The position numbers and the translations under genes are program-made. Of a DNA stretch of 64,000 bases, positions 19,824-64,000 are shown piece by piece. Every line of letters starts with the position of its first letter. Within the stretch, counting starts at the first letter, position 1. Source of the stretch: a plasmid; sequence record NZ_CP067424.1; one strand, 5' to 3'. Under the pieces are notes generated by a model. That model made no database searches. It had not been told where the DNA came from and saw only the letters and a program-made list of their open reading frames with translations.

Positions 19824-19828
19824 TGCAC

Positions 19829-23926: not shown

Positions 23927-24296
23927 ACACATATTTCAGAAAATAGCACCTGCTCAAAATAGGGTATGTGAAAGCGTGTAGAAGAAGCAAACTACCCATC
24001 TGTAAGGCTATGAGCGTAATGCGCTATAAAGAGTATCCTGAACGATAACCTTCGAAGAGCTGCTCGCCGCGGCGAATGCCGGCGACGCCAGGACCTCGGG
24101 ACAGTGGACGCCGACAGCCTGTAAGACCTGGCGGGAGGCAGAGCCGGAAGAAGCTCGCCTGCTGGAAGCGGCCTGGGCATGGGAACTCGCGAACGACCGC
24201 CGAGCACAGCCGCGCGACCTGGTCGAGGTCAGTCAGGCAGCGCCGCCAGGAGATGGACGAAGCCACGGTTGCAGCGAGGCAAGGGTAGAAAATGGC

Positions 24297-29048: not shown

Positions 29049-30000
29049 GCTGCAGGGGGAGAACCTGACCGCGAACCGGACCGAGGGCATGAGGCGCCTG
29101 CTGGACGACCTGGAGGACGCCTACGGCCCGATCATCCGGACGGCCAAGCAGACGCCGGGCTGCACCGACATCATGGTGAACGAGGACGGCGCGATCTGGC
29201 TGACAGTCGGCGGGCAGGACAGGCCGACCGGCGAGCACCTGACCGAACACGCCGCGCGCCGGATCGTCACCTTGGTCTCGGACATCGACAATCACCCGAT
29301 CGAGAAGGCGGCGCTGTCGGCCAACCTGCCGACCGGCGAGCGGTTCGCGGCCCTGCTGCCGCCCACGGTGCGCCGGATCACCTTCTCGATCCGCCTGCCG
29401 CCGGGGCGGATCTTCACGGTGGACGATTATGTCGCCGCCGGCGCCATGACGGAGGCGCATGCCGACGTGCTGCGCGCGGGCGTGGCCGACCGCAAGAACA
29501 TCCTGATCGTCGGCGGCACCGGAGCGGGCAAGACGACGCTGGGCAACGCCCTGCTGGCGGAGGCGCCGTTCCGGTCCAGCCGGGTCTTCATCATCCAGGA
29601 CCAGGACGAACTGCGGGTGAGTGGTCCCAACGTGGTCCGCGCCTTCACCGGCGCGATGAATGCCCGCGAGCTGGTCCGCGAGGCCTTGCGCCACAAGCCC
29701 GACCGCATCGTGATCGGCGAAATCCGGGACGGGGAGACGGCACTGGAATGGATTGGTGCCAGTAACACCGGCCACCCCGGCGGGCTTTCCACGGTCCACG
29801 CCAACTCGGCGGCGCATGGCCTGTCGCGCATCTCGCGACTGATCGGCCACGTAGCCGCCAACGTGCCGCACGGCGACATCATCGAGGCGGTCGACATGGT
29901 GGCGTTCATCCGGCGGGAGCGGGACGGATCACGGCGCCTGGCCGAGATCGTAAAGCCGACCGGGCATGACGGAGAGAGATACCGGACAGACACCGTCTAG
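29017..30000 (+). CDS. trbB: Conjugal transfer ATPase TrbB (VirB11 family)
   Basis: Walker A GGTGAGKTT. VirB11 motifs DRIVIGEIRD and His box GHPGGLSTVHAN. Start ambiguous (ATG at 29017, 29029 or 29080). Confidence 0.85.
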   Translation: MNARMPAMPLELQGENLTANRTEGMRRLLDDLEDAYGPIIRTAKQTPGCTDIMVNEDGAIWLTVGGQDRPTGEHLTEHAARRIVTLVSDIDNHPIEKAALSANLPTGERFAALLPPTVRRITFSIRLPPGRIFTVDDYVAAGAMTEAHADVLRAGVADRKNILIVGGTGAGKTTLGNALLAEAPFRSSRVFIIQDQDELRVSGPNVVRAFTGAMNARELVREALRHKPDRIVIGEIRDGETALEWIGASNTGHPGGLSTVHANSAAHGLSRISRLIGHVAANVPHGDIIEAVDMVAFIRRERDGSRRLAEIVKPTGHDGERYRTDTV

Positions 30001-38787: not shown

Positions 38788-38964
38788 ATGAAAACTTTGG
38801 TAATCGCCTCGATCCTGCTTGTCGCCCTGTCCGGTTGCTGGGACGCCGAGCAGAAAAAGAAGTCGGACGACTTCATGAGCAACCTGACGAAGTGCGAGAA
38901 TGACTGCCGGATTACCGAACCCTTCCTGGGCGGCGGCAAGAAGGGCGAGGGCGATGGACGCTGA
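38788..38964 (+). CDS. trbK: Small lipoprotein (58 aa), probable TrbK-like entry-exclusion protein
   Basis: MKTLVIASILLVALSGC lipobox. RBS AGGAGGATAA. Sits between trbJ and trbL as in RP4/Ti. Stop overlaps the trbL start. Not in the ORF track (<60 aa). Confidence 0.45.
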   Translation: MKTLVIASILLVALSGCWDAEQKKKSDDFMSNLTKCENDCRITEPFLGGGKKGEGDGR

Positions 38965-40099
38965 TTACGCCTACCTCAACGCTGCCATCAAAGAGATGCT
39001 GGCCCGGGTCACGTCTACCGGATCCGCCATCGACGCGGCGCTTCAGCCGGTGTACCTGATCACCGGCACGCTGCTGTTCGTCATCGCGTTGATGAAGTTC
39101 ATGTGGCAACGCGACTTGGCGCCGCTGGCCGCGTTCGTCATACGCTATATGCAATTGATGGTTCTGATCTTCATATCCGGTCAGTGGATGCCGCTGACCG
39201 ATGCGTATGTTTCCGGCATGGGTAGTTTCGGCGCCGGCATCGCGGGGTTCGATATCCTGCAACTGGCTCCGGGAACGGTGATCGTTCGCGCGCTGGAGCT
39301 GGCGAACAGGATGTACAGCGAGAACGTCTCCTGGATGCGCCTGATGCTGGGCAGTACGCAGGACACGGTCGCTCACCTGCTGCTGCTGATCGGATGCGCC
39401 GGCACGATCCTGCTGAGCATCTTCATGGCCGCCTGGATCATGCTGTTTTTCGTGGTCTTCAAGCTCGCCACCGTGGTGGCACTCGTCTTCCTGGCCTTCA
39501 TGATGTTCGACAGCACCCGGTTCATGGCGGCGCCGGGTCTGGCGCGCATCGTGGCTTACGGCACCCAGATGCTGGTGCTGGGACTCGCCACAGGCATGTT
39601 CTTCATGGTTCTGGATGCCCTGGACCTGAGCGGGCACCTGCATGTCGGCCAGTCGATCTCGCTGCTGGTGGTCATGTTCTTCTTTGCCCTGCTATTCAAG
39701 TACACGACGGATATCGCGCGCGAGCAGCATTCCGGCATGCCGACCCTCGGGCTTCACGACATTGGCCGGACTGCCGGGCAGATAGCCGGCGCCGCGGCCT
39801 CGACGGTGGGCACGATCGGCACGGTTGGCTTGGGCGCCCTTGCCATGTCTCGCGCCGCCGCGATCTCCCGGCCAGCGACTGCTTCCTACGCCATGACCGG
39901 CCCTGGCGCTGCCGGCGGTTCGGCCGGTGCCATCGGTGGGCCGCCGCCGTCCGTCGCCCGCATGCTCAACAAGCCGTCGGTCGACGCGACCTGGACGGAG
40001 GCCCGGGACCTCGCCCCGGCCTCGGTCCAACGGATGCTGAGCCAGAGCCGGAAGGCATTGCCGGCACCGCCGCGCCAGCTGCCCCCTCCCCGTTCCTGA
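38954..40099 (+). CDS. trbL: TrbL (VirB6 family) polytopic membrane protein
   Basis: Multiple TM helices. Gly/Ala/Pro-rich C-terminal tail. Position after trbJ/K. Confidence 0.8.
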   Translation: MDADYAYLNAAIKEMLARVTSTGSAIDAALQPVYLITGTLLFVIALMKFMWQRDLAPLAAFVIRYMQLMVLIFISGQWMPLTDAYVSGMGSFGAGIAGFDILQLAPGTVIVRALELANRMYSENVSWMRLMLGSTQDTVAHLLLLIGCAGTILLSIFMAAWIMLFFVVFKLATVVALVFLAFMMFDSTRFMAAPGLARIVAYGTQMLVLGLATGMFFMVLDALDLSGHLHVGQSISLLVVMFFFALLFKYTTDIAREQHSGMPTLGLHDIGRTAGQIAGAAASTVGTIGTVGLGALAMSRAAAISRPATASYAMTGPGAAGGSAGAIGGPPPSVARMLNKPSVDATWTEARDLAPASVQRMLSQSRKALPAPPRQLPPPRS

Positions 40100-40121
40100 T
40101 CGTTCTCGATAGGGGTTTTCC

Positions 40122-40799
40122 ATGCTCGGTTTGAACCGCGGTCACTGGAAGGAAGACGACGAGTACAGGAAGGCCCGCTGGGCCTACGAAGGTCAAGGTG
40201 CCGGCGCCACCAGAGCGGCATGGTTCCTGGGCGCCGGACTGATCGCCGTCACGGCGTTCGCCGGCATCCAGACCTATGACAAGCACCTGCTGGCCAAACT
40301 GGACGACCTGAAGTTCGTGGCGATCGAGAGCAACCGGACCACCGGCGAGGTTGTCAGCGTGTCCAAGGTGACCGGCGAACTGATGGCCGACGAGACCAAG
40401 CGCCGGCAGTTCGTGCGGTGGTGGATCGAACTGTGGCGCAACGTGCCGGCCGATGCCGTCGCCTACAATCGCTCCTACCTGGCGGCCCAGGTCTACATGG
40501 CCGACCCGGTCCACCACGCGGTCGCGGCCTACATGAGCGAGAACCCGGTCAACACCTTCATCCGGTCGGGCCATGCCCGCATGGTGCGGGTCCAGAACGT
40601 GACGCCGGCCGGCAACGGCACCCGCTACCGGGTGGACTGGATCGAGAGCGTCTACCGGAACAGCCAGCTGGTCAACCAAACGCCAATGACGGCCGACCTG
40701 GACCTGGAGCAGCACACGCCGCGCACCGATGCGGAGGCCGAGGCCAACATCTTCGGCTTCGTGGTGAAGGGTTTTTACTGGACCCCGCCGGCGATGTGA
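40122..40799 (+). CDS. trbF: TrbF (VirB8 family)
   Basis: 225 aa. N-terminal TM, then NTF2-like periplasmic domain (…VYRNSQLVNQTPMTADLD…). Canonical position. Confidence 0.8.
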   Translation: MLGLNRGHWKEDDEYRKARWAYEGQGAGATRAAWFLGAGLIAVTAFAGIQTYDKHLLAKLDDLKFVAIESNRTTGEVVSVSKVTGELMADETKRRQFVRWWIELWRNVPADAVAYNRSYLAAQVYMADPVHHAVAAYMSENPVNTFIRSGHARMVRVQNVTPAGNGTRYRVDWIESVYRNSQLVNQTPMTADLDLEQHTPRTDAEAEANIFGFVVKGFYWTPPAM

Positions 40800-40842
40800 C
40801 AATGTAAGTGCCTTTCCCCGAGAGGGCACGATCATTATACTC

Positions 40843-40865
40843 TTGACTACTATATTTTTGTAGTC
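40843..40865 (+). promoter_or_regulatory. Second copy of the TTGACTAC-N9-GTAGTC palindromic operator/promoter, upstream of trbG
   Basis: TATACTCTTGACTACTATATTTTTGTAGTCATG. Same spacing and flanks as the copy at 33678. Confidence 0.45.
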
Positions 40866-40891
40866 ATGCCGCTTCGGGGGATGTGCTGACC

Positions 40892-41761
40892 ATGAGACGT
40901 GCCGCCTTCTTGATCCTTCCGCTCATCGCAGGGTGCGCCTCGTCAAAGTACGAAGCGCCCCTGCCGACCCTCCCCTCGGCGTCCCTTCAGCTGCCGAGAG
41001 CACCGGCCCGGCCGCCGCTGCCGGACACCCTGCCGAAGCTGCCGGCCGAAGATCCGGTCAAGGCCATTGCCGGTGCCACCAAGGACGGCCTGGTGAAGCC
41101 GCGCCGGGAGTGGTTCAAGGGGCTGACCTACATGCCGCCCTACCACCCGAACCACGGCTACCTGGTCTATATCCCGTTCGGCCTTTCCTCGACCTTCGAG
41201 TTCAGTCCCGGCGAGAAGCCGCAGGATGCGACCTGCAGCGACAGCAGCGGCAACATCATCGCACCAAGCTGGTCGAGCATGGGCGTCGGTGCCGGAAAGA
41301 AATGGGTTTTCCAGGTCAAGGTGACGATGGAGCCGCCGTTCCCCCGCCAGGACTGCACGGTGCTGACCACCCGCGGCATCTACTCGATCTATGTCCAGGG
41401 CACCAGGAGCACCCATACGGCCAAGGTCCGCTGGTCGGACCCTTACGGTGTGCTGTCCGAGGCCGACCCCGAAGCGCCGGAGCCGTGCGCCCAGGCCGAC
41501 ATCGACTATGCCCTGTCCGGTGATCCCGGCGCCTTCGGCCTGCGTCCGGGCGACGTCTCCAACGACGGCCGGCATACCTGCCTGCGGTTCCCGCAGTCCG
41601 CGGGCTTTGACCTTCCTTCCGTCTGGCTGATCGAGGGCGACCAGGAGCGCCCGGCCAGCCCGACCATGATCGACGGTGCCTACAGGATCGACGGGGTTCC
41701 CCGCGTGATCGAGCTGCGCACCGACAATGCCACCCTTCGCATCGAGAGAGCCGCGCCATGA
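40892..41761 (+). CDS. trbG: TrbG (VirB9 family) lipoprotein
   Basis: MRRAAFLILPLIAGC lipobox, then a Pro-rich linker and VirB9-like beta domains. ATGA overlap with trbI. Confidence 0.85.
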   Translation: MRRAAFLILPLIAGCASSKYEAPLPTLPSASLQLPRAPARPPLPDTLPKLPAEDPVKAIAGATKDGLVKPRREWFKGLTYMPPYHPNHGYLVYIPFGLSSTFEFSPGEKPQDATCSDSSGNIIAPSWSSMGVGAGKKWVFQVKVTMEPPFPRQDCTVLTTRGIYSIYVQGTRSTHTAKVRWSDPYGVLSEADPEAPEPCAQADIDYALSGDPGAFGLRPGDVSNDGRHTCLRFPQSAGFDLPSVWLIEGDQERPASPTMIDGAYRIDGVPRVIELRTDNATLRIERAAP

Positions 41762-42846
41762 CCCAGGCAGAGACCGAATACGTTGACCCGCCGCGGTCGG
41801 TGAACGACCCCCGGCCGCCGATCCACACCATGCTGAAGTGGCCGGTTGCCCTGGCCGGCACGGCGATGGTCGCCCTGCTGGCCGGCATCACCATCGGCCC
41901 CACCCTGTTCCGGGACGAGCCGGAGCCCAAGCGGGTGGACCCGGAACCGAGGATGGCCACGCCCCGTCCGCTGCACGGCATGCCGACGGATTACAGCCAG
42001 GTCCAGCCGCCGCCGGAACCGGAAGCAGTACCCGCCCCGGCGCCCGCCCCTGCCCCTGTGGCGGCGCCGGCTCCCGCCCCGGTCACCCGCGTCATGGGGG
42101 GTGGTCCGAGAGGGCCGACCAAGACCGAGTTGTTGAGGGAGGCGATGCGCTCGCCGCTGAAGCCGATCCCGATCACGTCGGGCGGCAACGTCGCGGTCGA
42201 GCAGGCCGCTGTCGGCGGATCGGGCGGCGCCGCACCGGCCAGCAACCTCTACAGCCGGCATTCCCTGGTCGATCCTTACGAGTGCCAGGTCAATGCCGGC
42301 ACCAACATCCCGGCCATGACCGAGCAGCGCATCACCAGCGAGTCACCTGGCACGGTATCGGCGGTGGTGACCCGGGACGTCTGGAGCGCCGACAAGGCGT
42401 GCCTTGCCATCCCGCGGGGTACCCGGTTCGTCGGCCGCTACCAGACCCAGGTGGCCGAGGGACAGGCGCGACTCGGCGTGATCTGGACCGGCCTGACCCG
42501 CCCGCCGCCGCGCAACGACACGATCGACCTGGACGACACCGTGGCGGGGGATCCGGACGGCACCGCCGGGCTCAGCGGCGAGGTGAACGGCTTTTTCTGG
42601 CGCAAGCTGGGCTATGTGGCCGCCGCCTCGCTCCTGGACATCGGGCGGACCAGCATCCAGGCGACCGGCGAGGGTGGCATGGGAGCCGCGATCGCGGGCA
42701 TTTTCGCCAATCGTGCCACGAGTCCCATTGATGAATGGGCACGCCGCCAGTTAGACATTCCCCCGGTGATACAGGTGCCGCCGCGCGAGATCAGCATCGT
42801 CCTGGCGCGGCACGTGCCGATGGACGAGTTCAGAACCGGGAGATAG
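41758..42846 (+). CDS. trbI: TrbI (VirB10 family)
   Basis: N-terminal TM. Pro-rich region (PEPEAVPAPAPAPAP). Conserved C-terminal VirB10 barrel region. Confidence 0.85.
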   Translation: MTQAETEYVDPPRSVNDPRPPIHTMLKWPVALAGTAMVALLAGITIGPTLFRDEPEPKRVDPEPRMATPRPLHGMPTDYSQVQPPPEPEAVPAPAPAPAPVAAPAPAPVTRVMGGGPRGPTKTELLREAMRSPLKPIPITSGGNVAVEQAAVGGSGGAAPASNLYSRHSLVDPYECQVNAGTNIPAMTEQRITSESPGTVSAVVTRDVWSADKACLAIPRGTRFVGRYQTQVAEGQARLGVIWTGLTRPPPRNDTIDLDDTVAGDPDGTAGLSGEVNGFFWRKLGYVAAASLLDIGRTSIQATGEGGMGAAIAGIFANRATSPIDEWARRQLDIPPVIQVPPREISIVLARHVPMDEFRTGR

Positions 42847-46525: not shown

Positions 46526-46721
46526 GGATGTCTCCGGAGATGTCAGCGTCAGCGCCTCGGGCGTGCGCGCCAGACTGGCCCCGGCATGTTAAAGATCCTA
46601 TAACTTCAAGGTATCTGATCGAAACGGAGAGCTGATCGCCGGGGTGAACGCTATTCGGGCTGCGATGCCCAGGCAGGAGTCACAGCAACGCATTCCCGGA
46701 TAGGAGCCTGGCTGCTTCCAG

Positions 46722-47894
46722 GTGTCGGCACCGGGCCGGGATTTCGCCACCGAGAAACGCAAGGCACAGATGGACGAGAAACCGGACCCTGCCGACGATC
46801 CCGAGCGGCTCGCGGCCCTGCACGATTACCAGGTCCTCGACACACCGCGCGAGGCCGCCTTCGACACCCTGGTCGAACTCGCCGCCCGGATCTGCGCGGT
46901 GCCGGTCGCGGTGATCAACCTGGTCGAGAGCCGCCGCCAGTGGTTCAAGGCCGAGCTTGGCCTGGGTGTGCGGGAAACCCCGATCGACGTGTCGATCTGC
47001 CGCCACTTCCTGCTGCGGCCCGGCCTGACCGTCGTCCCGGACACGCTGCGCGACGAGCGCCTGTGCTGCAATCCCCTGGTGACGGCCGACGACGGCCTGC
47101 GCTTCTACGCCGGCTGCCTGCTGCAGACCGCCGACGGGCACGCCATCGGTACCCTGTGCGTGCTCGACCGGCGCCCGCGCGACCTCGACGCGGACCAGCG
47201 CTTCGCGCTGCGGGCGCTGGCGGACCAGGTCATGGCCCAGCTCGAGCTGCGCCGGACGCTGCGGCAGAAGAGCCGGCTGCTGGAGCGTCACGAGCTGCTG
47301 ATCCGCGAGGTCAACCACCGCACCAAGAACAACCTCCAGCTGATCAGCAGCATCATTAGCCTGCAGCTGCGCTCGATCGACGATCCGGCGGCGCGGGCGG
47401 CGCTGCTCGACACCGGCAGCCGCATCCGCAGCATCGCCGCGGTGCACGAGCAGCTCTACCGGGCCGACCAGGTGGGCGCGGTGGACCTCGGCACGTTCCT
47501 GCAGGCCCTGGCCCCGGGGCTGCAGTCGTCGGCGCCCCACGGCGTCACGCTCACCGTCGAGGCGGCCCCGGTCCCGGTCCCCCTCGACACGGCGGTTCCG
47601 GTCGCGCTGATGGTCAACGAGTTCGTCACCAACGCGCTGAAGTACGCCTACGGCGAGGGCACGGGCGGTCCGGTCCGGGTCGTGCTCCGGACCGTCGGCG
47701 GGCGGGTCGAGCTCGTGGTGCGGGACCATGGCCGGGGACTGCCGGCCGACTTCGACCTGCGGCGGAGCCGCTCGCTGGGCATGCGCATCATCCTGTCGCT
47801 CGCCGGGCAGATCGACGCCGCCGTCGTCATCGGCAACGCCGATCCCGGGACCGAGTGCCGGGTGAGCTTCGGCGCGGCGGTCCCGTCCGCCTGA
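46722..47894 (+). CDS. Sensor histidine kinase, GAF domain plus HWE/HisKA_2 kinase
   Basis: N-terminal GAF (…VINLVESRRQWFKAELGL…HFLLRPGL…GTLCVLDRRPRD). H-box EVNHRTKNNLQLISSII typical of HisKA_2/HWE kinases. C-terminal ATPase region. Confidence 0.8.
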   Translation: MSAPGRDFATEKRKAQMDEKPDPADDPERLAALHDYQVLDTPREAAFDTLVELAARICAVPVAVINLVESRRQWFKAELGLGVRETPIDVSICRHFLLRPGLTVVPDTLRDERLCCNPLVTADDGLRFYAGCLLQTADGHAIGTLCVLDRRPRDLDADQRFALRALADQVMAQLELRRTLRQKSRLLERHELLIREVNHRTKNNLQLISSIISLQLRSIDDPAARAALLDTGSRIRSIAAVHEQLYRADQVGAVDLGTFLQALAPGLQSSAPHGVTLTVEAAPVPVPLDTAVPVALMVNEFVTNALKYAYGEGTGGPVRVVLRTVGGRVELVVRDHGRGLPADFDLRRSRSLGMRIILSLAGQIDAAVVIGNADPGTECRVSFGAAVPSA

Positions 47895-49388: not shown

Positions 49389-51467
49389 TCAGGCGGCGCG
49401 GATGCCGGCGAGGAAGCGCTCGACCTCGCGCCGCAGCGCCTCGGCCTGGCGGGCCAGCTCGCCCGACGCGCCCAGCACCTGGGATGCTGCCGCGCCGGTC
49501 TGGCCGGCCGCTTGCGTGACCTGGACGACGTTGCCCGACACCTCGGCCGTGCCGGCCGCCGCCTGGGCGACGTTGCGCGAGATCTCGGCCGTCGCCGCAC
49601 TCTGCTCCTCGACCGCGGCGGCGATCGTGGTGGTGATCTCGTTCATCTCGCCGATCGTGCCGCCGATGCCCTGGATGTCGGCCACGGCTCCGTCGGTGAC
49701 GGCCTGCATGGCCGCGATCTGGGCCGCGATCTCCTCGGTCGCCCTGGCGGTTTGGGTCGCCAGGTTCTTGACTTCCGAGGCGACCACGGCGAAGCCCTTG
49801 CCGGCCTCGCCGGCCCGGGCCGCCTCGATCGTGGCGTTCAGTGCCAGCAGGTTGGTCTGGCTGGCGATCGACTGGATCAGCCCGACCACCTGGCCGATCC
49901 GGCCGGCCGCCTCGGCCAGGCCCCGGACCGTGTCGTTGGTCCGCCCGGCCTGCTCGACCGCCTGGCCGGCGATGCCGGTCGAGCGCACCACCTGGCGCGA
50001 GATCTCCTGCAAGGAGCCGGTCATCTCCTCGGATGCCGCCGCCACGGTCGAGACGTTGGCCGACGTCTGCTCGGCCGCGGCCGCCGAGGCGGTGGCCTGG
50101 CGCGAGGTCTCCTCGGCAATGGCCGCCATGCTCCGGGCCGTGCTGTCCAGCTCGGTCGCGGCCGAGGCCACCGTGCGCAGGATCTCGCCGACGCCGCCCT
50201 CGAAGCCGCCGATCAGCCGCTCGACCGCCGCCGCCCGCGCCTCCTTGGCGGCCCGTTCGGCCGCCTGCGCCTCCTCCAGCCGGACCCGCTCCACCGCGTT
50301 GTCCCTGAACACCTGGACCGCCTGCGCCATGGCGCCCAACTCGTCCCGGCGCTCGGTACCGGCGATGACGACGGCGAGGTTGCCGCCGGCCAGGTCGCGC
50401 ATGGCAGTGGTCATGGATTGCAGCGGGCGGACAAGTCTTCTGCCGACGAGCAGGAACGACAAACCCGCCAGGCCGGCTCCCAGGGTGAGTGTCAGGGCCG
50501 CAACCATCATGTGCCACAGGGCAGCCCGCGACGACGTCTCGACCTCCTGCCCGATCGCCCCGGTCGCCGCCTGCTGCAGGGCCAGGATGGTGTCGATCGC
50601 CCGTGTCGATGTCGCGATCCAGGCAGCGGCATCGATCGGATAGGCTTCTCCTCCGGTGCCGGCGCGGTACACGTGCCTGCGGGTTTGCTCGAAGGTATCG
50701 AAGAACCCCGACCGAACGCTGGTGACGGCAGCCGCGACATCCGGCGGCGCGTTCTCGGCGAGCCCTTGGACCATCGTCCAGGCCAGCTCGACTTGGCCGC
50801 GGTAGCCGGCGAGAAGAGCGGCCCGCTCGAGCTTCAGGGGCTCGCCCGCGGCGATGGTGCCGCCGACTTGCGCGCGTTCGCGTCCGGCGTACTCGCTCAT
50901 GATCCAGGCAAAGTGCCGTAGAGCCTGGAGGTTGGCCAGGGTGGCGCTCCGGTCCCCGGTGCCCCTCGTCACGGCCAACCTCAGGTCCTGGCTGGCCATG
51001 ATCAGTCCCGTGGCTGCCGGCACCCATCCGGACAGGACCAGGCCATCGCGCCGATCCTTCGGCAGGGCCAGGTTCCGGTCCACCTGTCGGCGGGTATCCT
51101 GGAAGGAGGCCAGGAGTTCCTCGACGGTGCGGATCCGGCCGGTCTCGCGACCGTCGTCGAGCCGGTCCAGCTCCGCCAGCGCCGTCCGGATCGCCGTGTC
51201 GGCCGCTTCGCGGCGCTGGCCGATCAGGTCGAGCGCGCCGGCAGCGGCGGGTTCGGCCGCCGCCAGTGCGGCGGCCGTGGCGCCCCGCTCGACCGCCCAG
51301 TGGCCCGCGGCTGACAGGAGCTGATCGCTGACCGGGTTGGTTTCGGCCACCAGCTGCGTGCCACGGTGGCGTGTCCAGGCGTCGGCCGCGATCCACAGGG
51401 TGCTCGCCAGAACGACTGCAGCCAGGGCACCGATCACCAGCATGATCAAACTTCGAATAGACATTAT
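49389..51467 (-). CDS. Methyl-accepting chemotaxis protein
   Basis: N-terminal TM ([22 protein letters not shown]), periplasmic sensor, HAMP, and the highly conserved MCP signalling domain (…[32 protein letters not shown]…). The ORF track start at 51608 is upstream of the likely start. Confidence 0.85.
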
Positions 51468-51630
51468 TCGCACATACCCATGATCAACAAGCGAAGATGT
51501 AGAGATAGGGGCGGTCAAAAGCGACCGATACCGGGTGCGTACCCAGCAGCAAAGCTTCTTTTTCCGATCTCGACCGGATGGTTTTTTATTCACGTGTAGC
51601 TTAAGCAATAGTTTAGGACTGCATTTTCCA

Positions 51631-52098: not shown

Positions 52099-52485
52099 TC
52101 AGCTCGGCTTGCCCTTCCGCTCGAACGCGGCGGCGATCGCCCCGACCAGGGCGGAATAGGTCACCGGCTTGATCAGGATATCGGTCGCACAGTGGCGCGC
52201 CTCCGCCGCCCGCCGGTAGTCGGCCGTGACGAAGATGATCGACACCCCGAGCGACGCCAGCTCGACGGCGACTGAAACGCCATCGACGCCGCCGAGCAGG
52301 CCGATGTCGACCAGCGCCAGATCGGGTACCTGCCGCTGCACCTGCTCCAACGCAGCTTCCGCACTCGGCGTCGGACCGACTACCGTGTAGCCGGCGTTCC
52401 TCAACATGGCCGACCAGCCGTCGGCGATGAGAGGATTGTCCTCACACACGAGAACCCGTCCGCCCTCCGCCCGTCCGACATCCAT
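52099..52485 (-). CDS. Single-domain response regulator (CheY-like receiver)
   Basis: …RVLVCEDNPLIA…LALVDIGLLGGVDG…IIFVTAD…LIKPV. Acidic pocket, phospho-Asp and conserved Lys present. 128 aa. Confidence 0.8.
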   Translation of the reverse strand: MDVGRAEGGRVLVCEDNPLIADGWSAMLRNAGYTVVGPTPSAEAALEQVQRQVPDLALVDIGLLGGVDGVSVAVELASLGVSIIFVTADYRRAAEARHCATDILIKPVTYSALVGAIAAAFERKGKPS

Positions 52486-52819
52486 GGCCCGCTCCCACGC
52501 CGCGATGAAATGAGAAGCGATCGTTGGGGTTTTTCTTTAATGATTCGTTAACTCCGAGCAAAATACGCATCCCATGGGTGGAACAACGTCTTTCACCGAG
52601 ATCGGGTCGAAGGTAAAAATCAACCTCAGCTCTCTGTTCGGGAAATCACACCCGGCCTGGTGAGGGAAGGCGAAGGCCTCCAGATCAGGAGGTCGCAGTG
52701 GGGGGAAACCCGCTCCGGAACGGGACGGAGCGGGTTTTTCCCATGGTTCCGGAAGGGATGTGCGGTCTGATCCGCCGAGGTTTGCCGTTCCTCGCGGTTC
52801 GGTGCGGGAGCGGGCCTGA

Positions 52820-53213
52820 TCATCTTCCCGTCGGGGATCGATCGCTTGTACAAGACGATGCGGGGACTTGCTGGCCCGGGCCTGCGTCGCTGTGACCCGG
52901 GTGCTGGACAGGCACGGCGTGGCGGTGGCTGGGGGACTTGGAGCCCAGTGCCCTGTCGATCGTCGCGAACAGCTTCGACGGCGACACGGGTTTGAGGATG
53001 AAGGGAACCGGCAGGGTCGGCTGGTCATCGGCCGACATCAGAACCACGGGCACGTCGAAGCGCCTCAGGACGCGTTCCGCGACATCGATCCCGGAGGAGT
53101 CAGCAAGATGGATGTCGATCAGGCAAAGCTCCGGCCGGAGACGCTCGATGCCCGCTACCGCCGCGTCGGCAGCCTCGGCGACCCGCTGGTTCGGCAGAAA
53201 TTACTGGCCTGCA
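52820..53213 (-). pseudogene. 3' fragment of a receiver-domain gene
   Basis: Frame reads …ELCLIDIHLADSSGIDVAERVLRRFDVPVVLMSADDQ…FILKPVSPSKLFATIDRALG, preceded in frame by stop codons. The N-terminal acidic pocket is missing. Confidence 0.4.
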
Positions 53214-53411
53214 CTCTACAGTGACGGCAACTTCATACAGGCGCTTCGCGGCGCAGGCCGACTGGAGGGGAGGAGCCATATGGAGTACAGGGGCTACATT
53301 TCCGGACTGATCCGGATCAACGCGGCAAACGGCACTTTCGCCGGCACGGTTGCCGGTATCCGCGACGTGATCTACTACTACAGCCGGGACTTTCCGATAA
53401 TGATCGGATCT

Positions 53412-53517
53412 GTCCCACGATATCAATAAGTTAGCTGAATCGCCTTGGTTTTGCCCTGTCCCGTAAATTATTGATATCATTGGGACTGTCGAAAAGTCCC
53501 GGCTGTAGTACTACAGC
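53412..53517. other. Dense nest of palindromes (18-bp IR GTCCCAcGATATCAATAA…TTATTGATATCAtTGGGAC, then two short hairpins) adjoining the left 103-bp repeat
   Basis: Read directly: 53412-29 and 53468-86 inverted; GGGACTGTCGAAAAGTCCC; GCTGTAGTACTACAGC. Confidence 0.4.
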
Positions 53518-53614
53518 GGATCGCGTTAAATCCGGATCGCTTTGGAGCGTGATGTCGCCCGGCAACGCCAAAAGAACGGTAGGGATGCTTCGGATTTAGC
53601 GCACGGCACTGTAA
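53512..53614 (+). repeat. About 103-bp repeat, left copy (inverted partner at 57329-57431, about 95% identical)
   Basis: TACAGCGGATCGCGTTAAATCCGGATCGCTTTGGAGCGTGATGTCGCCCGGCAACGCCAAAAGAACGG…GGATTTAGCGCACGGCACTGTAA. Internally self-complementary (GCGTTAAATCCG … CGGATTTAGCGC). Confidence 0.6.
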
Positions 53615-53859
53615 ACGAGGTGCGCCCCCGGCTCCCCGGCAAAGTGCCGGACAGGACGACTTCGCCCGGCAGATCGGACTCCAGCAAGGCTCCACCGCCG
53701 GGACGGTCGTGCCAGGCCGGGGGCATGGCACGCGGGCTTGGGCCGGATGCAGTCCAGGCAGCCAAACGGCATCAGGAAAATGCAGGTACGCATGCCGGCA
53801 CTTTCGATTGAACAGAGTTGGCATTGAGGCTGTTTGCCCAGTACGGCTGCTGTGCCGCG

Positions 53860-53921
53860 ACACCTTCTTTGGGTGTCTCCTCCCTAGACTCAGGCCGCCT
53901 GTCGAAGGCGGCCTTATTTTT
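53860..53921 (+). other. Conserved double-hairpin element, copy 2 (ACACC-TTCTTT-GGGTGT, CTCCTCCCTAGACTC, AGGCCGCC-N7-GGCGGCCT, T-run)
   Basis: Shares the CTCCCTAGACTCAGGC core and both stems with copy 1 at 23863-23926. Stem 1 differs by a compensatory pair (G/C to A/T). Confidence 0.35.
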
Positions 53922-54459
53922 GCACAAAATGGAGCGTTCGCCAATTGCAATCGAACCATCCTGTGTCGTTCTCCCGGAACCGTGCACAGGGAACAGCCTT
54001 CTCGGGGCATGGCGTCGGTCTGCCCGGGCGGGCGCTGCAGGGCGGGCACAACCGCTGGAAAATCGGAGCCCGAGCTTAGTCAACGCGGCCATCCCGGCCG
54101 GAGGACCAGCAGCCCGACGGTGTCGGTGTCGGTGACGGCATGGGCAATGATGATGTTGGCGAGCAGATCCTGGCGCCCATCGTCGAACCCACCAAGGCAC
54201 AGGCTGTCGAGGATACGGGCCAGGACAGAGTGAAGAACCCACATGAGAAGAGCCGACAGGGCCAGCCCCCAGGCAAAGGACCCGCTTCCGAACCCGTGCC
54301 AGCCGATCGAGGCGAGCGGTTGCCTTTCCCAGAGCAGGACGAGCACCACGATGGTCGCCGTCAGGACAAGAAGGTAAACCTGTCGAGGACGCGGGTGCAC
54401 AGGGCGTGCTCGGCTCCGAGGCATCGGTGACCGGACTGGCGCCGCTTGAGGCAGAACAT

Positions 54460-55956
54460 CTACCCCGGCCCCGGCAGGCGAAGCGTCCAGCGTGCACCGG
54501 GAGCGGCATCCTCGGTCCGCAACTCGGCGCCGAGCTGGCGCGCCATGCCCAGGATCACCCGCATGCCGAAGCCCGGCGTCGCCTGCCCGGGAACGAAACC
54601 GGGTGGCAGTCCGACCCCGTAGTCCCGCACGCTCAGTTCCACGCCTCCGGCGCCGGACGGGCCGAACCGCACGGCGATGCGGCGGTCGCCCTCCGCCGGG
54701 CCGGCATGCTTGATCGCGTTGGCGACGAGCTCGACGAAAACAAGCCCGAGCGCCACCGCGGTGTCGGTGGGCAGGTCTGCCGCCTCCGCCTGCACCTCGC
54801 AGACATGCTCCGGCGCCGCCTCGCCCAGGTCCCGGCACAGGGAGTGCAGGTAGGCGCCGAACTCCACCCGCTCGACGCTGGCGCCCTGGTACAGACGCTC
54901 GTGGAGCTTGGCGATGGCGCGCACCCGCGCCGCCGCCGCCTCCAGCTCCCGGCGGGTCTCCGCACCCGCGGTCTCCCGCGCCTGCAGGCCGAGCAGCGAC
55001 GACACCAGCTGCAGGGAGTTCCTGACCCGGTGGTTGACCTCGCCGAGGAGCAGCTCCTTCTGGGCCAGCGCCTCGCGCAGCTCGGCCTGGACCTGCTTGA
55101 CGGCGCTGATATCGCGCCAGGCGATCACGCCGCCGGTGACGGTGCCGTCGGGCGCCCGGATCGGCCCGGCGTTGCACAGGATGCTGAATGCCCTGCCGTC
55201 GGCGTGCCGGAGCACCCACTCCTCGCCCGTCACCACTTCGCCGTGCCGGGTGGCGCGGGTGAGCGGCAGCTCGTCCGGGGTGGCGCGGGTCACGCCGTCG
55301 GCGCGGAAGATGTCCCAGCGGCCGACGTGCTGGTCGGCCGGGATGCCCTCCAGCTCCCCGGCGGTGCGGCCGGTCATCCATGTCCCGTACGCGCTGACAT
55401 GGCGGATGGTCACGTCGGGCGCGTCGGCGATGGTGATGCCCTCCGGGATGTAGGCCAGCAGTCCCTCCAGGAGCCGTTGCGCCGTCTCCGCCTCGGCGGC
55501 GCGCGCCTCGACCGCCCGGCGCATCGTGACCTTGTCGGTCACGTCTGAGGCCAGGACCAGGACGGCCCGGACGGTGCCGTCCTCCCCGGCCAGCGGGACG
55601 TGGTCGAAGTCGTAGTAGGCGGGCTCGCCGGCGCTCGTCAGCACGGCGAACTCGCGCCGCCTGACGGTCCGGCGGGTCAGGTAAACCTCGTCGACCAGGG
55701 GCAGCCGCCCCGCGTCGGCGAACTCCGGGAACACGGCCGCGGCCGGCAGCCCGATGAACCCGCTCCCCGGCTCCCGGAGGCGCCGGTAGGCCCGGTTCGC
55801 GTAGGTGAACCGGTGATCCGGACCGTGCAGCAGCGCGATGCCGACCGGCGCCAGTTCGACCGCTTCGGTCAGGAAGGAGCCGTCCATCAGCGTCGCGAGC
55901 CCGTCGGCATCCGCTGCGTCGATCATCGGAGCGTCGTCCTCGGGCAAGCAGGCCAT
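54460..55956 (-). CDS. Sensor histidine kinase with two PAS domains and an HWE/HisKA_2 kinase core
   Basis: H-box EVNHRVRNSLQLVSSLL. PAS-like segments upstream. C-terminal HATPase region. Start uncertain (the ORF track begins at 56085). Confidence 0.8.
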   Translation of the reverse strand: MACLPEDDAPMIDAADADGLATLMDGSFLTEAVELAPVGIALLHGPDHRFTYANRAYRRLREPGSGFIGLPAAAVFPEFADAGRLPLVDEVYLTRRTVRRREFAVLTSAGEPAYYDFDHVPLAGEDGTVRAVLVLASDVTDKVTMRRAVEARAAEAETAQRLLEGLLAYIPEGITIADAPDVTIRHVSAYGTWMTGRTAGELEGIPADQHVGRWDIFRADGVTRATPDELPLTRATRHGEVVTGEEWVLRHADGRAFSILCNAGPIRAPDGTVTGGVIAWRDISAVKQVQAELREALAQKELLLGEVNHRVRNSLQLVSSLLGLQARETAGAETRRELEAAAARVRAIAKLHERLYQGASVERVEFGAYLHSLCRDLGEAAPEHVCEVQAEAADLPTDTAVALGLVFVELVANAIKHAGPAEGDRRIAVRFGPSGAGGVELSVRDYGVGLPPGFVPGQATPGFGMRVILGMARQLGAELRTEDAAPGARWTLRLPGPG

Positions 55957-56183
55957 GCGCTCAGGGTTCCCGGTCGGTGACGGCGGAAGGTCCGCCTCGG
56001 CATTGACTTGCATTATCCTCAACCGCCTTGATCCCGCAAGCTGCCCGTCGGGGGCCGGTGAACAAAAGCGGAATACCCCGTGCAAGTTGCTGGATTCCGC
56101 CGATTTTAGCTCCCCGGCGACACCGTTCCAGGCCGCGCACTGTTGCTGCCTGTGACACCCGCAACCGTTCCGGCAGAACTGAC

Positions 56184-57347
56184 ATGACGAACCAGAAGGA
56201 CGTCCCGCGAGCGCCCGGCGCGGTCCAGGCGCAGCCCGGCCTGGAAACCTGGCCCTTCGCCGCGATCGTCCAGGCCTCCGACACGCCGACCCTCCTCACC
56301 GACCCCCGCCTGCCCGACAACCCGATCGTCTTCGCCAACGACGCCTTCCTGCGGCTGACCGGCTACGGCCGTGACGAGGTCCTGGGACGCAACTGCCGCT
56401 TTCTCGGCGGCCCGGGAACCGACCGGGAGGTCCGCAGCCGGGTGCGCACCGCGGTCGAGGAGGTGCGGCCCCTCAGTGCCAGGCTGCTGAACTACCGCAG
56501 GGACGGCTCGGCATTCTGGAACCAGCTGCACATCAGCCCGATCTTCGACGAGGTCGGCATGCTGGCCTACTTCGTCGCCTACCAGCACGACGTCACCGGG
56601 CAGGTCGAGGCGGAGCAGGCCCTGCGGCAAGCCCGGCGGGACCTCGAGGAACGCCTGGCGGAACGCGAGCGCCTGATCCTCGAAGTCCATGACCGGGTGC
56701 GCAACAATCTCCAGACGGTCATCGCCCTGCTCAACCTGGAAGCCGGCCGGGCCGATCCTTCCCTGCGCCAGCAGTTCAACCTGATCACGCAGCGCGTTCG
56801 TGTGCTGGTCGGCATCCACGAGCAGCTGAAGAGCTTCGGCCAGTGGGCGGCGATCGACTTCGGCCGCCACCTGCGGGAGACCTGCGCCGGGCTGGAGGAC
56901 CTGTTCGCCGACACCGTCACGGCCACGGTCGAGGCCGAGCCGCTGCTGTGCGACATCCAGGCGGCGGTACCCCTGGGTCTGATCGCCAACGAACTGATCG
57001 CCGCGTGTTTCCGCCAAGTCACTGGAAGCGGTGCGGTGGGCCGGTGCCGGGTCAGGGTCCAGCTCAGCCACCGACAGGAGACCGGCGTCGTCGAGCTCGC
57101 GGTCGGCGTCACCGGGGCCGGGGAGGCTTCACGGCCGGTCGGCGACCTCCCCGGTCCGAGCGCGATCGTCGACGTGCTGACCGAGCAGATCGGGGCCGAG
57201 CTGGCATTCGACCCGAACGCCGGCACGCGGGTCAGGCTGACCATCCCGGCCCGCTGCTTCACGCTCAGCCCGTCCTCCCCTTCCGGCTCGACCGATCCGC
57301 AGGTCCGGCCCGGCCCGTCCGGCCCGGATTACAGTGCCGTGCGCTAA
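56184..57347 (+). CDS. LOV-domain histidine kinase (blue-light photoreceptor type), HWE/HisKA_2 family
   Basis: Canonical LOV flavin-binding motif GRNCRFLGGPGTD with the adduct-forming Cys. H-box EVHDRVRNNLQTVIALL. The last 6 codons lie inside the right 103-bp repeat. Confidence 0.8.
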   Translation: MTNQKDVPRAPGAVQAQPGLETWPFAAIVQASDTPTLLTDPRLPDNPIVFANDAFLRLTGYGRDEVLGRNCRFLGGPGTDREVRSRVRTAVEEVRPLSARLLNYRRDGSAFWNQLHISPIFDEVGMLAYFVAYQHDVTGQVEAEQALRQARRDLEERLAERERLILEVHDRVRNNLQTVIALLNLEAGRADPSLRQQFNLITQRVRVLVGIHEQLKSFGQWAAIDFGRHLRETCAGLEDLFADTVTATVEAEPLLCDIQAAVPLGLIANELIAACFRQVTGSGAVGRCRVRVQLSHRQETGVVELAVGVTGAGEASRPVGDLPGPSAIVDVLTEQIGAELAFDPNAGTRVRLTIPARCFTLSPSSPSGSTDPQVRPGPSGPDYSAVR

Positions 57348-57431
57348 ATCCGAAGCATCCATGCCGTTGCTTTGGCGTTGCCGGGCGACATCACGCTCCA
57401 AAGCGATCCGGATTTAACGCGATCCGCTGTA
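57329..57431 (-). repeat. About 103-bp repeat, right copy (inverted relative to 53512-53614)
   Basis: Reverse complement matches the left copy with about 5 mismatches. The two copies bracket 3.7 kb holding both kinase genes. Confidence 0.6.
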
Positions 57432-58118
57432 TTTCGAGGAGGCGAGCGCGGAGGAACCGGAGGCCGGTTTTCGGCGCAGCATCGACAGGTCCCTGGCCGC
57501 CTGTTCCAAGGCAAGTCTCGAGCCCGCCAGGTCAGGGTAGATCGTCAGGGGCCAGGCTGGTGCCGTTACTTGCTGCGCACTTGCGCGATGCGTAGGCGGT
57601 GGGGCCCGGTGAACCGCTGAAGCACGCTCCCGGGCGATGGTCTGCCGCAGACCTGTACCTCGATCCCTGCCATGTCGTACGCTACCCGGGACAGGAAACC
57701 GCCCGGCGCGTCGGAGGGCGGCTTGCGGCATGGCTTGGCCCTGTGCTGGAGTGTTGCGGCAACTGAGGGACACGCCGCTCGACCACGTCCTTGCATTTCA
57801 CGTCCGGATACACAACCCACTGGTTTCCGCAGGGCTTCCTATGTCAGATTACCGGCCGGAACTCACATAGACCCGGTGGAGTGGTTCGATGCTGATGGAC
57901 GAGACGGCGGCGGCGGTGGCGGCCCTCGACGCGGTGGCCCGGCGGCTGTCCGGGGCACCGGCCCGGCAGCTGGCCGTCATGCGGGCGCAGCTGCTGGAGC
58001 TGACGCGCGAAGCGGTGCGGACACCCGCCGGGGATCCGGGTGTCACGGCGGTGGAGCTGCGGATCGTGTCCAGGAAAGCAGGGTAGCAGCCTGAGGATCT
58101 GCCGAGCAGGCGGATGCC

Positions 58119-60221
58119 TCAGGCGGCATCCGGTCGGCGGTGCGAACCCGCCGTCATTCCGGCCAGGAGCCTCTCGTACGCCGTGTTCCCCGCCGTCTCC
58201 AGCGCCAGCCGCAGGCCGTCGGCCGCGGCGTCGATGACGCGGAAGCCGACCGCGACACCCGACGCCGCCAGGGTCAGGGTTCCCGTATCGCCGGCGTCCA
58301 GGCCCGGATTGCCCGCGACCCGGGCTCCCGTCGTCGAGAGATCCGCGACCCTCACCTCGCCGGTGCCGGCAGGCCCCGAGATCCTGGCCGCCAGGTCCAC
58401 GGGGTGGCGCGGGCTGGCCCGGCGATCGACATCGGGCGTGGCGGTGCGCACGACCCGGACCAGCACCTGGCGCAGCTCCTGGATGGCCACGGCGACCTCG
58501 GTGGTCTCGCCCCGCACCCGCCCCGCCGTGGCGCCGGTCGCCAGGGCTTCCGCCGAGACCGCCGCGATCCGCTCGGAGACGTCGTGCGCCGCCGTCGCGG
58601 TCTGGGTCACGTTGCGCGCGATCTCGCGGGTCGCGGCACTCTGCTCCTCCATGCCCGCGGCGATGGTCGACGAGATCCCCGACACCGCGTCGATGTGGCG
58701 GCGCATGCCGGCGACCGAGGCGACGGCCTCCCGGGTGACGCCCTTGATCGCGGCGATCTGCCGGCCGATCTCCTCGGTCGCACTGGCCGTCTGGCCCGCC
58801 AGGTTCTTGACCTCGCCCGCCACCACCGCGAAGCCCTTGCCCGCCTCGCCGGCGCGCGCCGCCTCGATCGTGGCGTTCAGCGCCAGCAGGTTGGTCTGCG
58901 AGGCGATGCCGGCGATCAGGGTCGAGACCTCGTCGATCCGGTCCACCGTGACCGCCAGCGAGGCGATCGTCCGCTCGGTCCGGTCGCCGGCCTCGACGGC
59001 CTCCCGGGTGACGCTCGAGGCCTCGCCGAGCCGGCCGGTGATCTCCTGGATCGAGGCGGTGAGTTCCTCGGTCGCGGCCGAGACCATCTGGGCGTTGGCC
59101 AGCGCCTGCTGGGCGGCATTGGCGACGGTCCGGGCGTTGTCGGTCATGCCGGTCGCCGACCGCGCCATCACTTCCGCTTCCCGGCTCATCGCCTCGGTCC
59201 GCCGCGAGACCTGGGCGACCGCGGCGCCGGCCTCGCTCTCGACCCGCTCGGCCATGGCCTGCAGGGCCTGGCGCTGCGCCTGGCGGGCGCTCTCCGCCTG
59301 TTCGGTCTGCTGGTGGCGCAGATGCTCCGCCTCGCGCAGGCCCTGGCGGAACACCTCGGCGACCCGCACCATGGTGCCGATCTCGTCGCGCCGGTGGCCG
59401 CCGAGAATGACGTGGCCGTGCTCCCCCGCCGAGAGTTTCTCCAGGTCGCCGGTGAGCCGGCGCAGCGGCGTCACGAGGGCGCGGCTGAGCACGGCCGTGA
59501 TGAGGAGTGCCGCCGCGACCGACAAACCGATCGCGATCAGGGTCGAGCGCTGGCTGTCCGCCATCTCGTCCTCGGCGCGGGCGCGGTAGGCGAAGCCGTC
59601 GGCGGCGAAGGTCTCGACCACCTGCTCGAACCCGCCCGCGGCGACCTCGAGCAGGGCCGGCATCGCCGCCGGATCGTCGGCCTGGATGCCGACCCGCTCT
59701 ATCTGCCCGCGCAGCGTCGTGGCGGCTCCGCGTCCCTCGGCGGACATGGCGCGCTCGATCGCGACGTCCAGGTCCTCCAGGATCGCCGCCACCCGCTCCC
59801 GGACCGCGGCGGGATCGACGCGTGCCGGCAGCTCACCGGCAGTATCGGAAGCTTCCAGCTTCGGAGTTTCCTCCGCCCGGATCTCCGGCTCGCCGGCCGC
59901 CCGTGTCGGACTACCGGTGCGGGCCAGCGCGATCAGCCGCTGGCGCTCGCTCGGTTCGTCCCGGGCGACGGGTGCGGCCAGGCTGCCGCGCACCGCCCCG
60001 GCCGCCTGCTCCGCCGCCCCGGCGGCGAGGTACAGGCCCTGCAGGGCGGTGAACCTGGTCTCGGCGCTGCGCACCAGGCTGACCGACATGAAGGCCTCGT
60101 CGTAGACCTGGACGGCCAGCTGGCCGAGCTGCCGCCCGGCGGCAAGAGCGAAGACGCCCAGAGTGACCGTTACCGCGGTCATCAGCAGGCAGGCGAACAG
60201 GATCTTGAGCCGGATCGACAT
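58119..60221 (-). CDS. Methyl-accepting chemotaxis protein with a C-terminal PilZ (c-di-GMP-binding) domain
   Basis: MCP signalling domain (…[32 protein letters not shown]…) followed by [16 protein letters not shown]…[17 protein letters not shown] (RxxxR … DxSxxG PilZ signature). Same architecture as Azospirillum Tlp1. Confidence 0.8.
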
Positions 60222-62937: not shown

Positions 62938-64000
62938 TCAGGCGCTCCGGATGGCGGACAGGAAAGTCTCGACCTCGCGCCGCAGCGCCTCGGCCTGGCC
63001 GGACAGCGCCCGCGAGGCGCCCAGCACCCGGGTCGCCGCCTCACCGGTGCGGGTCGCGGCGTCATTGACCTCCAGGACGCCGGCGCTGATCTCGCCGGTG
63101 CCTTGCGCCGCCTGGCCGACGCTGCGGGCGATCTCACCGGTGGTCGCGTTCTGCTCCTCGACCGCGGCGGCGATCGCCGAGGAAATCTCGTTGATCGTGC
63201 CGATCGTGCCGCCGATGCCCTCGATGGCGCCCACCGTGCTCGTGGTGGCGCCCTGGACGGCGGCGATCTGGGCGGCGATCTCCTCGGTTGCCCGGCTGGT
63301 CTGGTTGGCCAGCGCCTTGACCTCGGAAGCCACGACCGCGAAACCCTTGCCGGCCTCACCGGCGCGCGCCGCCTCGATCGTGGCGTTGAGCGCCAGCAGG
63401 TTGGTCTGGCTGGCGATCGACTGGATCAGCCCGACCACCTCGCTGATCCGCCCGGTGGCATCCGCCAGACCGCGCACCGATGCGGTGGCCGCCTGGGCCT
63501 CCAGCGTCGCCTGCTCGGCGATGCCGGTGGAGCGGCCGACCTGACGGCCGATCTCCTGGCTCGAGGCCGCCATCTCCTCGGTCGCCGCCGCCACGGTCTG
63601 GACATTGGCCGAAGTCTGTTCGGCCGTCGCGGCCGACAGTGCTGCCTGCCGGTTGGTCTGTTCGGCGAGCGAGGCCATACTCTCGGCGGTGCCGCCGAGT
63701 TCCGAAGCGGCCGAGGCGACGCCGCCAAGCACGCCGCCCACGGTACGGTCGAAGGTCCGGATCAACTCCTCCATGGCGGCGGTGCGCCGTTCCCGTACCG
63801 CCTGGCCGGCGGCCTGTTCCGCCTCGAGCCGGGCGCGCGACAGCGCATTGTCCCGGAACACCGCGACGGCGGCGGCCATGGCGCCGATCTCGTCTCGCTG
63901 CCCCTGGGCCGGGATCGTGATGGCGGTGTCGCCCTCGGCCAACCGGCGCATCGCCGCCGTCATCGCGCCCAGGGGGCGGACACCGCGGCCGATCAGCAGG
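62938..64000 (-). CDS. Methyl-accepting chemotaxis protein, 3' part (gene continues beyond the window end)
   Basis: C-terminal HAMP/signalling domain almost identical in its core to the other two MCPs. The reading frame stays open to the window edge. Confidence 0.8.

Follow-up and report, generated by a model that had tools for sequence, protein, structure and literature searches.

A dispersed, insertion-polymorphic MITE-like repeat and its probably incidental bracketing of two sensor kinase genes on a plasmid

The DNA analyzed here, called the window below, is a stretch of 64,000 nucleotides from a plasmid (sequence record NZ_CP067424.1). Two inverted repeats of about 100 bp in it bracket the divergent genes of a PAS-HWE histidine kinase and a LOV histidine kinase (LOV-HK). 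The repeat unit is a dispersed, insertion-polymorphic, non-coding element that resembles a miniature inverted-repeat transposable element (MITE). With a probability of roughly 70%, the two arms are separate copies of this non-autonomous MITE-like element, and their bracketing of the kinase genes is incidental. Direct evidence covers the discreteness of the unit, its presence at other loci, an empty site in a sister family, its absence from a relative with 97% identity, a junction within a stop codon, and the conservation of two hairpins.

In a repeat search of the 64-kb window, 53512-53614 pairs with 57329-57431 over 103 nt with four mismatches (96% complementary) and a spacing of 3714 nt. Exactly two occurrences of a 39-nt core are found in the window, against none in 100 shuffles. 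The inverted repeats of about 103 bp noticed in the sequence-only reading (an earlier inspection of the letters by a model, made without database searches) are thus real. Alignment with copies from other genomes sets the element proper at 102 nt including a TA at either end; base 103 of the arm match is a coincidental identity of the flanks and lies outside the element. Among 11 copies from seven replicons, similarity runs from TA to TA, and beyond these the flanks diverge at once or are unrelated. The termini read TA-CAG...CTG-TA. In the 11-copy alignment a flanking TA is found on the left side of 10 copies and on the right side of eight, while TA makes up 1.8% of the dinucleotides of the window. 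Of 30 positions compared between the terminal inverted repeats (TACAGCGGATCGCGTTAAATCCG... and TACAGTGCCGTGCGCTAAATCCG...), 19 match, and the repeats are weaker in the form found in Azospirillum. The self-complementarity ascribed to the unit in the sequence-only reading is seen both in these ends and in the fold: single Skermanella copies fold end to end at -30 to -45 kcal/mol, with values of -36 to -40 kcal/mol in one set of single-copy folds, although the z-scores of the two arm folds against shuffles are only -1.6 and -2.0. Five of the six frames of the element contain stops, and the remaining one is an open stretch of 33 codons. Pfam gives no match to the 102-nt repeat, and Rfam, also at relaxed thresholds, gives no family for it or for MITE-A, an unrelated palindrome beside the left copy.

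Other copies were sought by blastn of the unit against a plasmid collection. The repeat is found at two places in the record of the 821-kb plasmid pTT6-1 of Skermanella sp. TT6 and at one in pSM-1 of S. mucosa. A 93% copy on pTT6-1 is intergenic, between the end of an IS256 insertion sequence (IS) and a carbonic anhydrase gene, and no second copy occurs within 50 kb of it on one side and 6 kb on the other. The 76% copy on pSM-1 overlaps the 3' end of a LysR gene and gives its last six codons (YSGLR*). The Azospirillum matches represent a sister family whose element is about 104 nt long; it occurs at 39 places across 15 plasmid records of Azospirillum, A. lipoferum 4B having 21 of these places, and several matches reach at least 98% identity. 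On plasmid p4 of A. lipoferum 4B a copy lies between LysR and mmsB, and the orthologous site is empty in B510, A. oryzae, and A. ramasamyi (flanks 94% identical). Removing the element and one TA from the 4B site restores the exact spacing of B510, where the seven central bases of the site differ. Partial Azospirillum matches (H25 and H26) are relics and not IS ends. On an A. ramasamyi plasmid (L032, 3501-3545), a solo relic of the left hairpin of the Azospirillum form fills a 56-nt gap between convergent genes and gives the TAG stop to an FkbM methyltransferase gene.

As far as seen in these sequences, the family appears confined to plasmids of Azospirillaceae (Skermanella and Azospirillum), and it is apparently undescribed; a literature search returned no paper on MITEs in Azospirillum or Skermanella. 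A scan of contigs of genome representatives with the terminal-repeat pattern gave one chance match, in a metagenome-assembled genome of Chitinophagales, with a pattern so strict that the TT6 and S. mucosa copies would fail it. Metagenome scans for the repeat gave nothing, or a chance match within a coding region. A protein search with concatenated translations of the element, aimed at open reading frames (ORFs) called through other copies, gave no match.

The right copy shows the element joined to a gene. Its first 18 nt are the last five codons of the LOV-HK gene followed by a TAA stop (YSAVR*), the stop lying 16-18 nt into the arm at 57345-57347; that the right copy supplies the last LOV-HK codons had been recognized in the sequence-only reading. 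The relative L015 (ENA ERZ11425480, Logan ERR14856300) has 96.9% DNA identity to window 54431-57331, which comprises both kinase genes and their shared promoter region, and no copy of the element is found anywhere on its contig. Where L015 reads GGC CCG GAT TAG, the window reads GGC CCG GAT TA/C AGT GCC GTG CGC TAA (the slash marks the junction), and the LOV-HK proteins end in ...GPSGPD and ...GPSGPDYSAVR, respectively. Because similarity to L015 stops exactly at the TA of the LOV-HK stop, the right copy sits in that stop codon and the protein is longer by five residues. A metagenomic contig (L007; LOV-HK protein 97% identical, DNA 98.6% identical to the window) carries the element at the identical position.

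Elsewhere, too, copies supply an upstream gene with its stop codon or lie right beside it. The first TAG of the element serves as the annotated stop of the preceding gene in A. lipoferum 4B, in B510 (two copies), in A. oryzae, and in the A. ramasamyi relic, and in a further full-length A. ramasamyi copy an internal GCGTAA provides the stop of the upstream gene. Note that this sample is biased, since the copies fetched had a coding sequence listed under the match. The element supplies stops because TA is rare, TAG and TAA contain TA, and from either end of the element an in-frame stop follows within a few codons. A duplication of the TA would fit the TA on both sides of most copies, the single TA at the L015 junction, and the length of the empty B510 site; among these loci no clean pair of filled and empty sites keeps both flanks. 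A MITE- or REP-like (repetitive extragenic palindromic) family of structured elements at gene boundaries, one of the possibilities raised in the sequence-only reading, is what the unrelated loci, the empty site, and the repeated stop supply bear out.

In the favored explanation, the element would be transposed in trans by a TA-duplicating transposase, for which the IS630/Tc1-mariner type is the best-known candidate. Insertions would survive mainly where they do little harm, that is, in stop codons, between convergent genes, and in junk DNA. The right copy would have inserted at the TA of the TAG stop of LOV-HK, so that translation runs five codons into the element and ends at a TAA that is part of the terminal arm (GCG(Y)TAA). 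Around the left copy there is non-coding debris, with MITE-A and a truncated receiver gene alongside. Both copies lie within a rearrangement-prone accessory region of a conjugative plasmid or an integrative and conjugative element (ICE), and in such transposon-rich DNA a clustering of small repeats is expected.

Several results weigh against this explanation. The sequence past the right copy (57432-58118) has no counterpart in L015 or in the other loci and plasmids searched. Since the window from 57432 onward is not collinear with L015, the right copy does not make a clean filled-versus-empty pair, and an extra rearrangement at its outer end must be assumed. Either a second event took place there (recombination with another copy, or an adjacent deletion) or the downstream flank of L015 is itself derived. 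An autonomous parent is also missing: no longer element with the same ends occurs among the plasmid matches at E up to 1, and a window-wide search for the element termini gave only the four known ends above chance and no autonomous partner. The IS630-family element of the relative L023 (3032-4399) was considered as a parent and rejected, its ends (CTAGTTCA...) being unrelated. The copy number in Skermanella looks low (the two places on pTT6-1 and the one on pSM-1), so a pair 3.7 kb apart is not expected by chance if the source genome is likewise poor in copies; the pair is mildly surprising unless that genome has tens of copies or the region is a preferred landing pad. A further difficulty comes from the hairpins of the element.

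The structure common to the 11 copies consists of two local hairpins and a spacer, not of one end-to-end stem, and 93.9% of its cells are paired. Both sides have changed in 9 of 27 pairs, compared with 3.9 +/- 1.2 in shuffles and at most three with the partners slid. In the right hairpin seven of 12 pairs covary, and in Azospirillum this hairpin is an 18-bp perfect stem preserved via double substitutions. The sample is essentially two clades and a few divergent copies, hence few independent events. Even so, maintenance of the hairpins is clear. A transposase of the DDE type that binds terminal inverted repeats needs no such hairpins; hairpins with compensatory changes fit mobilization of the REP/Y1 type, or host selection on 3'-end structure, at least as well.

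The unit might therefore be a REP/REPIN-like or IS200/IS605-type hairpin element, either mobilized by a Y1 transposase (RAYT or TnpA-Y1) or kept by the host as an RNA structure at 3' ends, and not a MITE of the terminal-inverted-repeat type. Besides the compensatory changes, the perfect Azospirillum stem and the solo left-hairpin relic of A. ramasamyi would suit such an element, as would the preference of the copies for gene 3' ends and convergent intergenic gaps. Nevertheless it is unlikely, given the TA on both sides of copies, the single TA at the L015 junction, and the clear terminal inverted repeats of the Skermanella copies. Copies are found in tens and not hundreds, no Y1 transposase is seen among the window ORFs scanned with Pfam, and the covariation comes mostly from two clades. 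The repeat also has no U-tract for intrinsic termination.

The two arms are identical at 98 of 102 positions and are each other's closest relatives overall. Their four differences are packed into 10 nt (positions 53573, 53574, 53580, and 53582 of the left copy). At all four sites the left copy has the state of the TT6 copy, and the right copy has the Azospirillum state at about three and the S. mucosa state at two. On sequence grounds this patch looks like two sub-lineages, or like a conversion patch from a third copy; either would imply further copies beyond those seen. One could also read the patch, together with the right copy's outer edge as the exact point where synteny with the 97% relative is lost, as footprints of exchange between copies. 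The copies would then serve as mobile sites of recombination through which modules of sensor kinases are shuffled from one plasmid context to another, and the inverted pair could flip or relocate the block of LOV-HK, PAS-HWE kinase, and the small RNA (sRNA) gene mmgR. Joined to this is the idea that the family is built in such a way that insertion at a stop-codon TA, with either end first, gives back a stop within 0-7 codons, which would make the family a stop-codon-tolerant invader of GC-rich genomes. This reading is quite unlikely.

Inversion in place is less probable still. Here recombination between the copies, by RecA or site-specifically, would flip the 3.7 kb and alter the position of the kinases and mmgR relative to the flanking genes. 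Inverted homology of 102 nt at 96% could be a substrate for RecA, and serine recombinase genes are present on the replicon. In L023 (79%), the PAS-HWE kinase gene is opposite in orientation relative to a methyl-accepting chemotaxis protein (MCP) gene homologous to 49389-51608, and the orientation of the LOV-HK gene with respect to a small neighboring gene is reversed from S. aerolata (L011) to L015. However, IS66 and IS630 elements occupy the L023 junction beside the PAS-HWE gene, where the repeat is absent, so the rearrangement in L023 is more simply IS-mediated. Resolvase genes are 30-43 kb distant; no recombinase gene is found within about 30 kb of the segment, the nearest serine recombinase genes being at 22950-23498 and 10026-10541. 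Short-read contigs of the strain and close relatives (L002, L007, L034, L035, and L037-L039) all end inside the repeat; they fit one arrangement and, ending there, would also allow the other. Two independent short-read assemblies break within the element, in keeping with the favored explanation; two copies alone would cause such breaks. No contig with the segment flipped between the same flanks was found, exact-protein look-ups of the flanking genes giving only contigs that end inside the repeat. Moreover, both genes and their shared divergent promoter region are inside the segment, so a flip would not switch them on or off. A site-specific switch would have an adjacent invertase and occur in both orientations, and neither is seen here.

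Very unlikely as well, and slightly more so, is a composite transposon in which the two inverted copies are the ends of a 3.9-kb unit carrying the kinase pair and mmgR. The two sides do have the same kind of end facing outward, and the host plasmid is rich in transposons. In L015 the kinase pair, 97% identical, also occurs in wholly other surroundings, and the block shared with the window has one of its borders exactly at the inner edge of the right copy. L015, however, has the pair without any copy of the element, and at its other border (54431) the block stops 820 bp short of the left copy, at the point where a fragment of an IS256 end begins in L015. The truncation of the receiver gene (about 53184) is 328 nt from the outer end of the left copy. 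In relatives L017-L022 (PAS-HWE protein 83% identical, gene about 86% in DNA), the PAS-HWE kinase neighbors the same MCP gene (MCP-PilZ), with an ISL3 fragment and an unrelated response regulator also present, and both LOV-HK and the repeat are lacking. The response regulator of L017 was considered as a relocated orthologue of that in the window and rejected at 30% identity. The synteny breaks against close relatives (53184, 54431, and 57331) thus do not outline a repeat-bounded block, and a TA duplication would carry no information for a composite unit. The sequence-only reading had both sensor kinases enclosed by the repeats, which Pfam and the structural match of LOV-HK (below) confirm. Its composite mobile or invertible cassette of light-sensing genes, on the other hand, is unsupported, given the 97% relative without copies, the shared unit 54431-57331, and the lack of a recombinase gene within about 30 kb. 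Finally, that one arm was copied from the other by a local rearrangement and belongs to no family, the outcome by which the sequence-only reading said it would fall, is scarcely credible: the arms are mutually closest and only 3.7 kb apart, but copies in three other Skermanella-type sources and in the Azospirillum sister family refute it, and the clustered differences match two distinct outside lineages, which argues against a fresh local duplicate.

The repeat has the generic properties of a MITE: its size, the lack of transposase coding, terminal inverted repeats, dispersed copies, and presence/absence polymorphism. RUP of Streptococcus pneumoniae is a 107-bp MITE attributed to IS630-Spn1, with terminal inverted repeats, TA insertion, and presumed mobilization in trans, and it is often found in IS-rich DNA (PMC2229807). 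The repeat described here is likewise about 100 bp long, non-coding, TA-flanked, and dispersed, and lies near an IS end (TT6) and near another palindrome. The two have no sequence similarity, and whereas the IS630-Spn1 termini are known for RUP, no parent IS is found here; IS termini matching the repeat, as in MITEs derived from IS630/Tc1-mariner elements, occur neither among the plasmid matches nor in L023. Against the 108 copies of RUP stand far fewer here, two on pTT6-1 and 21 across the plasmids of A. lipoferum 4B.

In Neisseria, insertion of Correia elements (NEMIS) duplicates TA, and hairpins form in their transcripts. They are elements of 100-155 bp with inverted-repeat ends, as here. 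Their short form is often fused to host ORFs (PMC2229807). They differ in having hundreds of copies, IHF sites, and promoter elements, and in host lineage and sequence they are unrelated to this repeat. Likeness to REP, BIME, and REPIN sequences lies in the short palindromic units, the location at gene 3' ends and in convergent gaps, and the compensatory hairpins. In its Azospirillum form the element looks like a pair of dissimilar palindromic units with a spacer between them, and one unit is also found alone. Unlike REP sequences, however, this repeat is TA-flanked, has inverted-repeat ends (Skermanella form) and a low copy number, and the Pfam scan of the window gave no RAYT. REP elements have GTAG as a free 5' head, whereas the GTAG/CTAC bases here belong to the stem. 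MITE-flanked mobilizable units, such as integron or resistance modules, move as a whole with one target duplication and recur as a unit. As in these, two MITE copies here bracket a few kilobases of plasmid cargo, but the cargo recurs without the repeats (L015), the breakpoints miss the outer ends, and no block with its repeats and a single target duplication is seen among the relatives compared.

Features in and around the bracketed segment are listed in Table 1.

Table 1. The two repeat copies and neighboring features of the window.
Feature	Coordinates	Strand	Details
Single-domain response regulator, intact	52099..52485	-	Pfam Response_reg, profile 1-110 of 111; outside left copy
Truncated response-regulator receiver pseudogene	~52820..53190	-	N-terminal third missing; tblastn with neighboring response regulator: 52934-53149, E 3e-4
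MITE-A, palindromic, unrelated to 102-nt repeat	53379..53507	.	129 nt; 4 nt from left copy; TA-CAG...CTG-TA ends
Left copy	53512..53613	+	Within decayed non-coding DNA; edges set by Skermanella TT6, S. mucosa, and Azospirillum copies
mmgR/suhB-family sRNA	53855..53929	+	Rfam RF00519, 52.4 bits against gathering score 41; within bracketed segment
PAS-PAS-HWE/HisKA_2 histidine kinase, 517 aa	54460..56013	-	Pfam PAS_4, PAS_9, HisKA_2/HWE_HK, HATPase_c; divergent from LOV-HK
LOV histidine kinase, 387 aa	56184..57347	+	LOV/PAS and HisKA_2, GRNCRFL motif
Right copy, inverted orientation	57330..57431	-	Edges from alignment; inner edge is end of LOV-HK gene in L015
Small 65-aa ORF, function unassigned by Pfam	57889..58086	+	Between right copy and MCP gene; GGAG upstream; probable gene
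MCP-HAMP-PilZ chemoreceptor	58119..60221	-	Outside right copy; syntenic with PAS-HWE kinase in more distant relatives

LOV-HK matches the structure of the Brucella LOV-HK (6ph4) with E 6.5e-39, and EL346 (4r3a) is also matched over nearly the full length. In S. aerolata (L011, AVFK01000088; 1484-2383 and 6137-7171), about 4 kb separates a LOV-HK homologue (71% identity) from split ORFs that match PhyR_sigma2, Sigma70_r2, and Sigma70_r4_2. This neighborhood hints at a link of this LOV kinase family to a general stress response locus. In other alphaproteobacteria, HWE and LOV sensor kinases feed the general stress response. The mmgR-type sRNA has a terminator-like site at 53892-53914, and stretches homologous to its region are found on Skermanella, Azospirillum, and Indioceanicola plasmids. 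A second mmgR/suhB-family match (23858-23934 (+), 46.7 bits) lies just downstream of the full-length serine resolvase gene 22950-23498 (+), and this pair of resolvase and sRNA is also present on pTT6-1 (L031 29015-29807) with 76-79% identity.

The truncated receiver gene and the dense palindromes that the sequence-only reading placed to the left of the left copy are both present. In a 98% identical contig (L036 1-401, SRR32377494), the receiver ORF continues upstream (...AGHHEVVGVAEA...), and the window departs from it at about 53184. MITE-A has a 22-nt terminal inverted repeat and an AT-rich center with divergent promoter-like hexamers (two divergent sigma-70-like pairs compared with 0.3 expected). 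A search of the window, the plasmid collection, and the fetched loci gave no second copy of it. A third palindromic repeat of 106 nt, with 27-nt inverted ends (TAGTACACTGATGCATAC...), is found at 10601-10706 beside a truncated resolvase gene; it is unrelated to the other two and is 87% identical to L015 5253-5358, just downstream of the PAS-HWE kinase there. In the flanks 52486-53511, 53614-54459, and 57432-58118, only the mmgR stretch is matched in the plasmid collection and fetched loci, and Pfam gives no match to small ORFs of the non-coding flanks. The ORF at 57889-58086 has GC contents of 0.80/0.55/0.89 by codon position (a coding-type third position) and is called as a gene in three Logan assemblies.

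The rest of the window is rich in mobile genes. Three Tn3-family transposase genes (173-3262, 6952-10158, and 13598-16108, all (-)) are accompanied by an IS66 fragment (4005-5099), an IS21-type transposase (16989-18275), a tyrosine recombinase (18885-19859), an IS5-family transposase (32396-33493), and two resolvases. RepA_C, the coupling protein (T4CP) of a type IV secretion system, VirB11, and VirB6/8/9/10 homologues are found across 11560-12690, 26836-30000, and 38888-42846. RepA, the coupling protein, and the VirB homologues indicate a conjugative plasmid or ICE of a Skermanella-like bacterium. A sensory cluster lies nearby, with a GAF-HWE histidine kinase (46704-47894 (+)) and MCP genes (49389-51608 (-) and 62938-63999 (-)).

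The region marks a rearrangement hot spot for HWE/LOV sensor kinases; it reveals no new mechanism and has modest practical consequences. Annotators should mark as repeat-derived the final five codons of this LOV kinase, and likewise the ends of several genes (LysR and others) of Skermanella and Azospirillum, and elements of this kind are expected to break short-read assemblies at such sites. The pattern suits genomes of 65-70% GC, in which there is little TA and a stop codon is one of the few places where insertion at TA does no harm.

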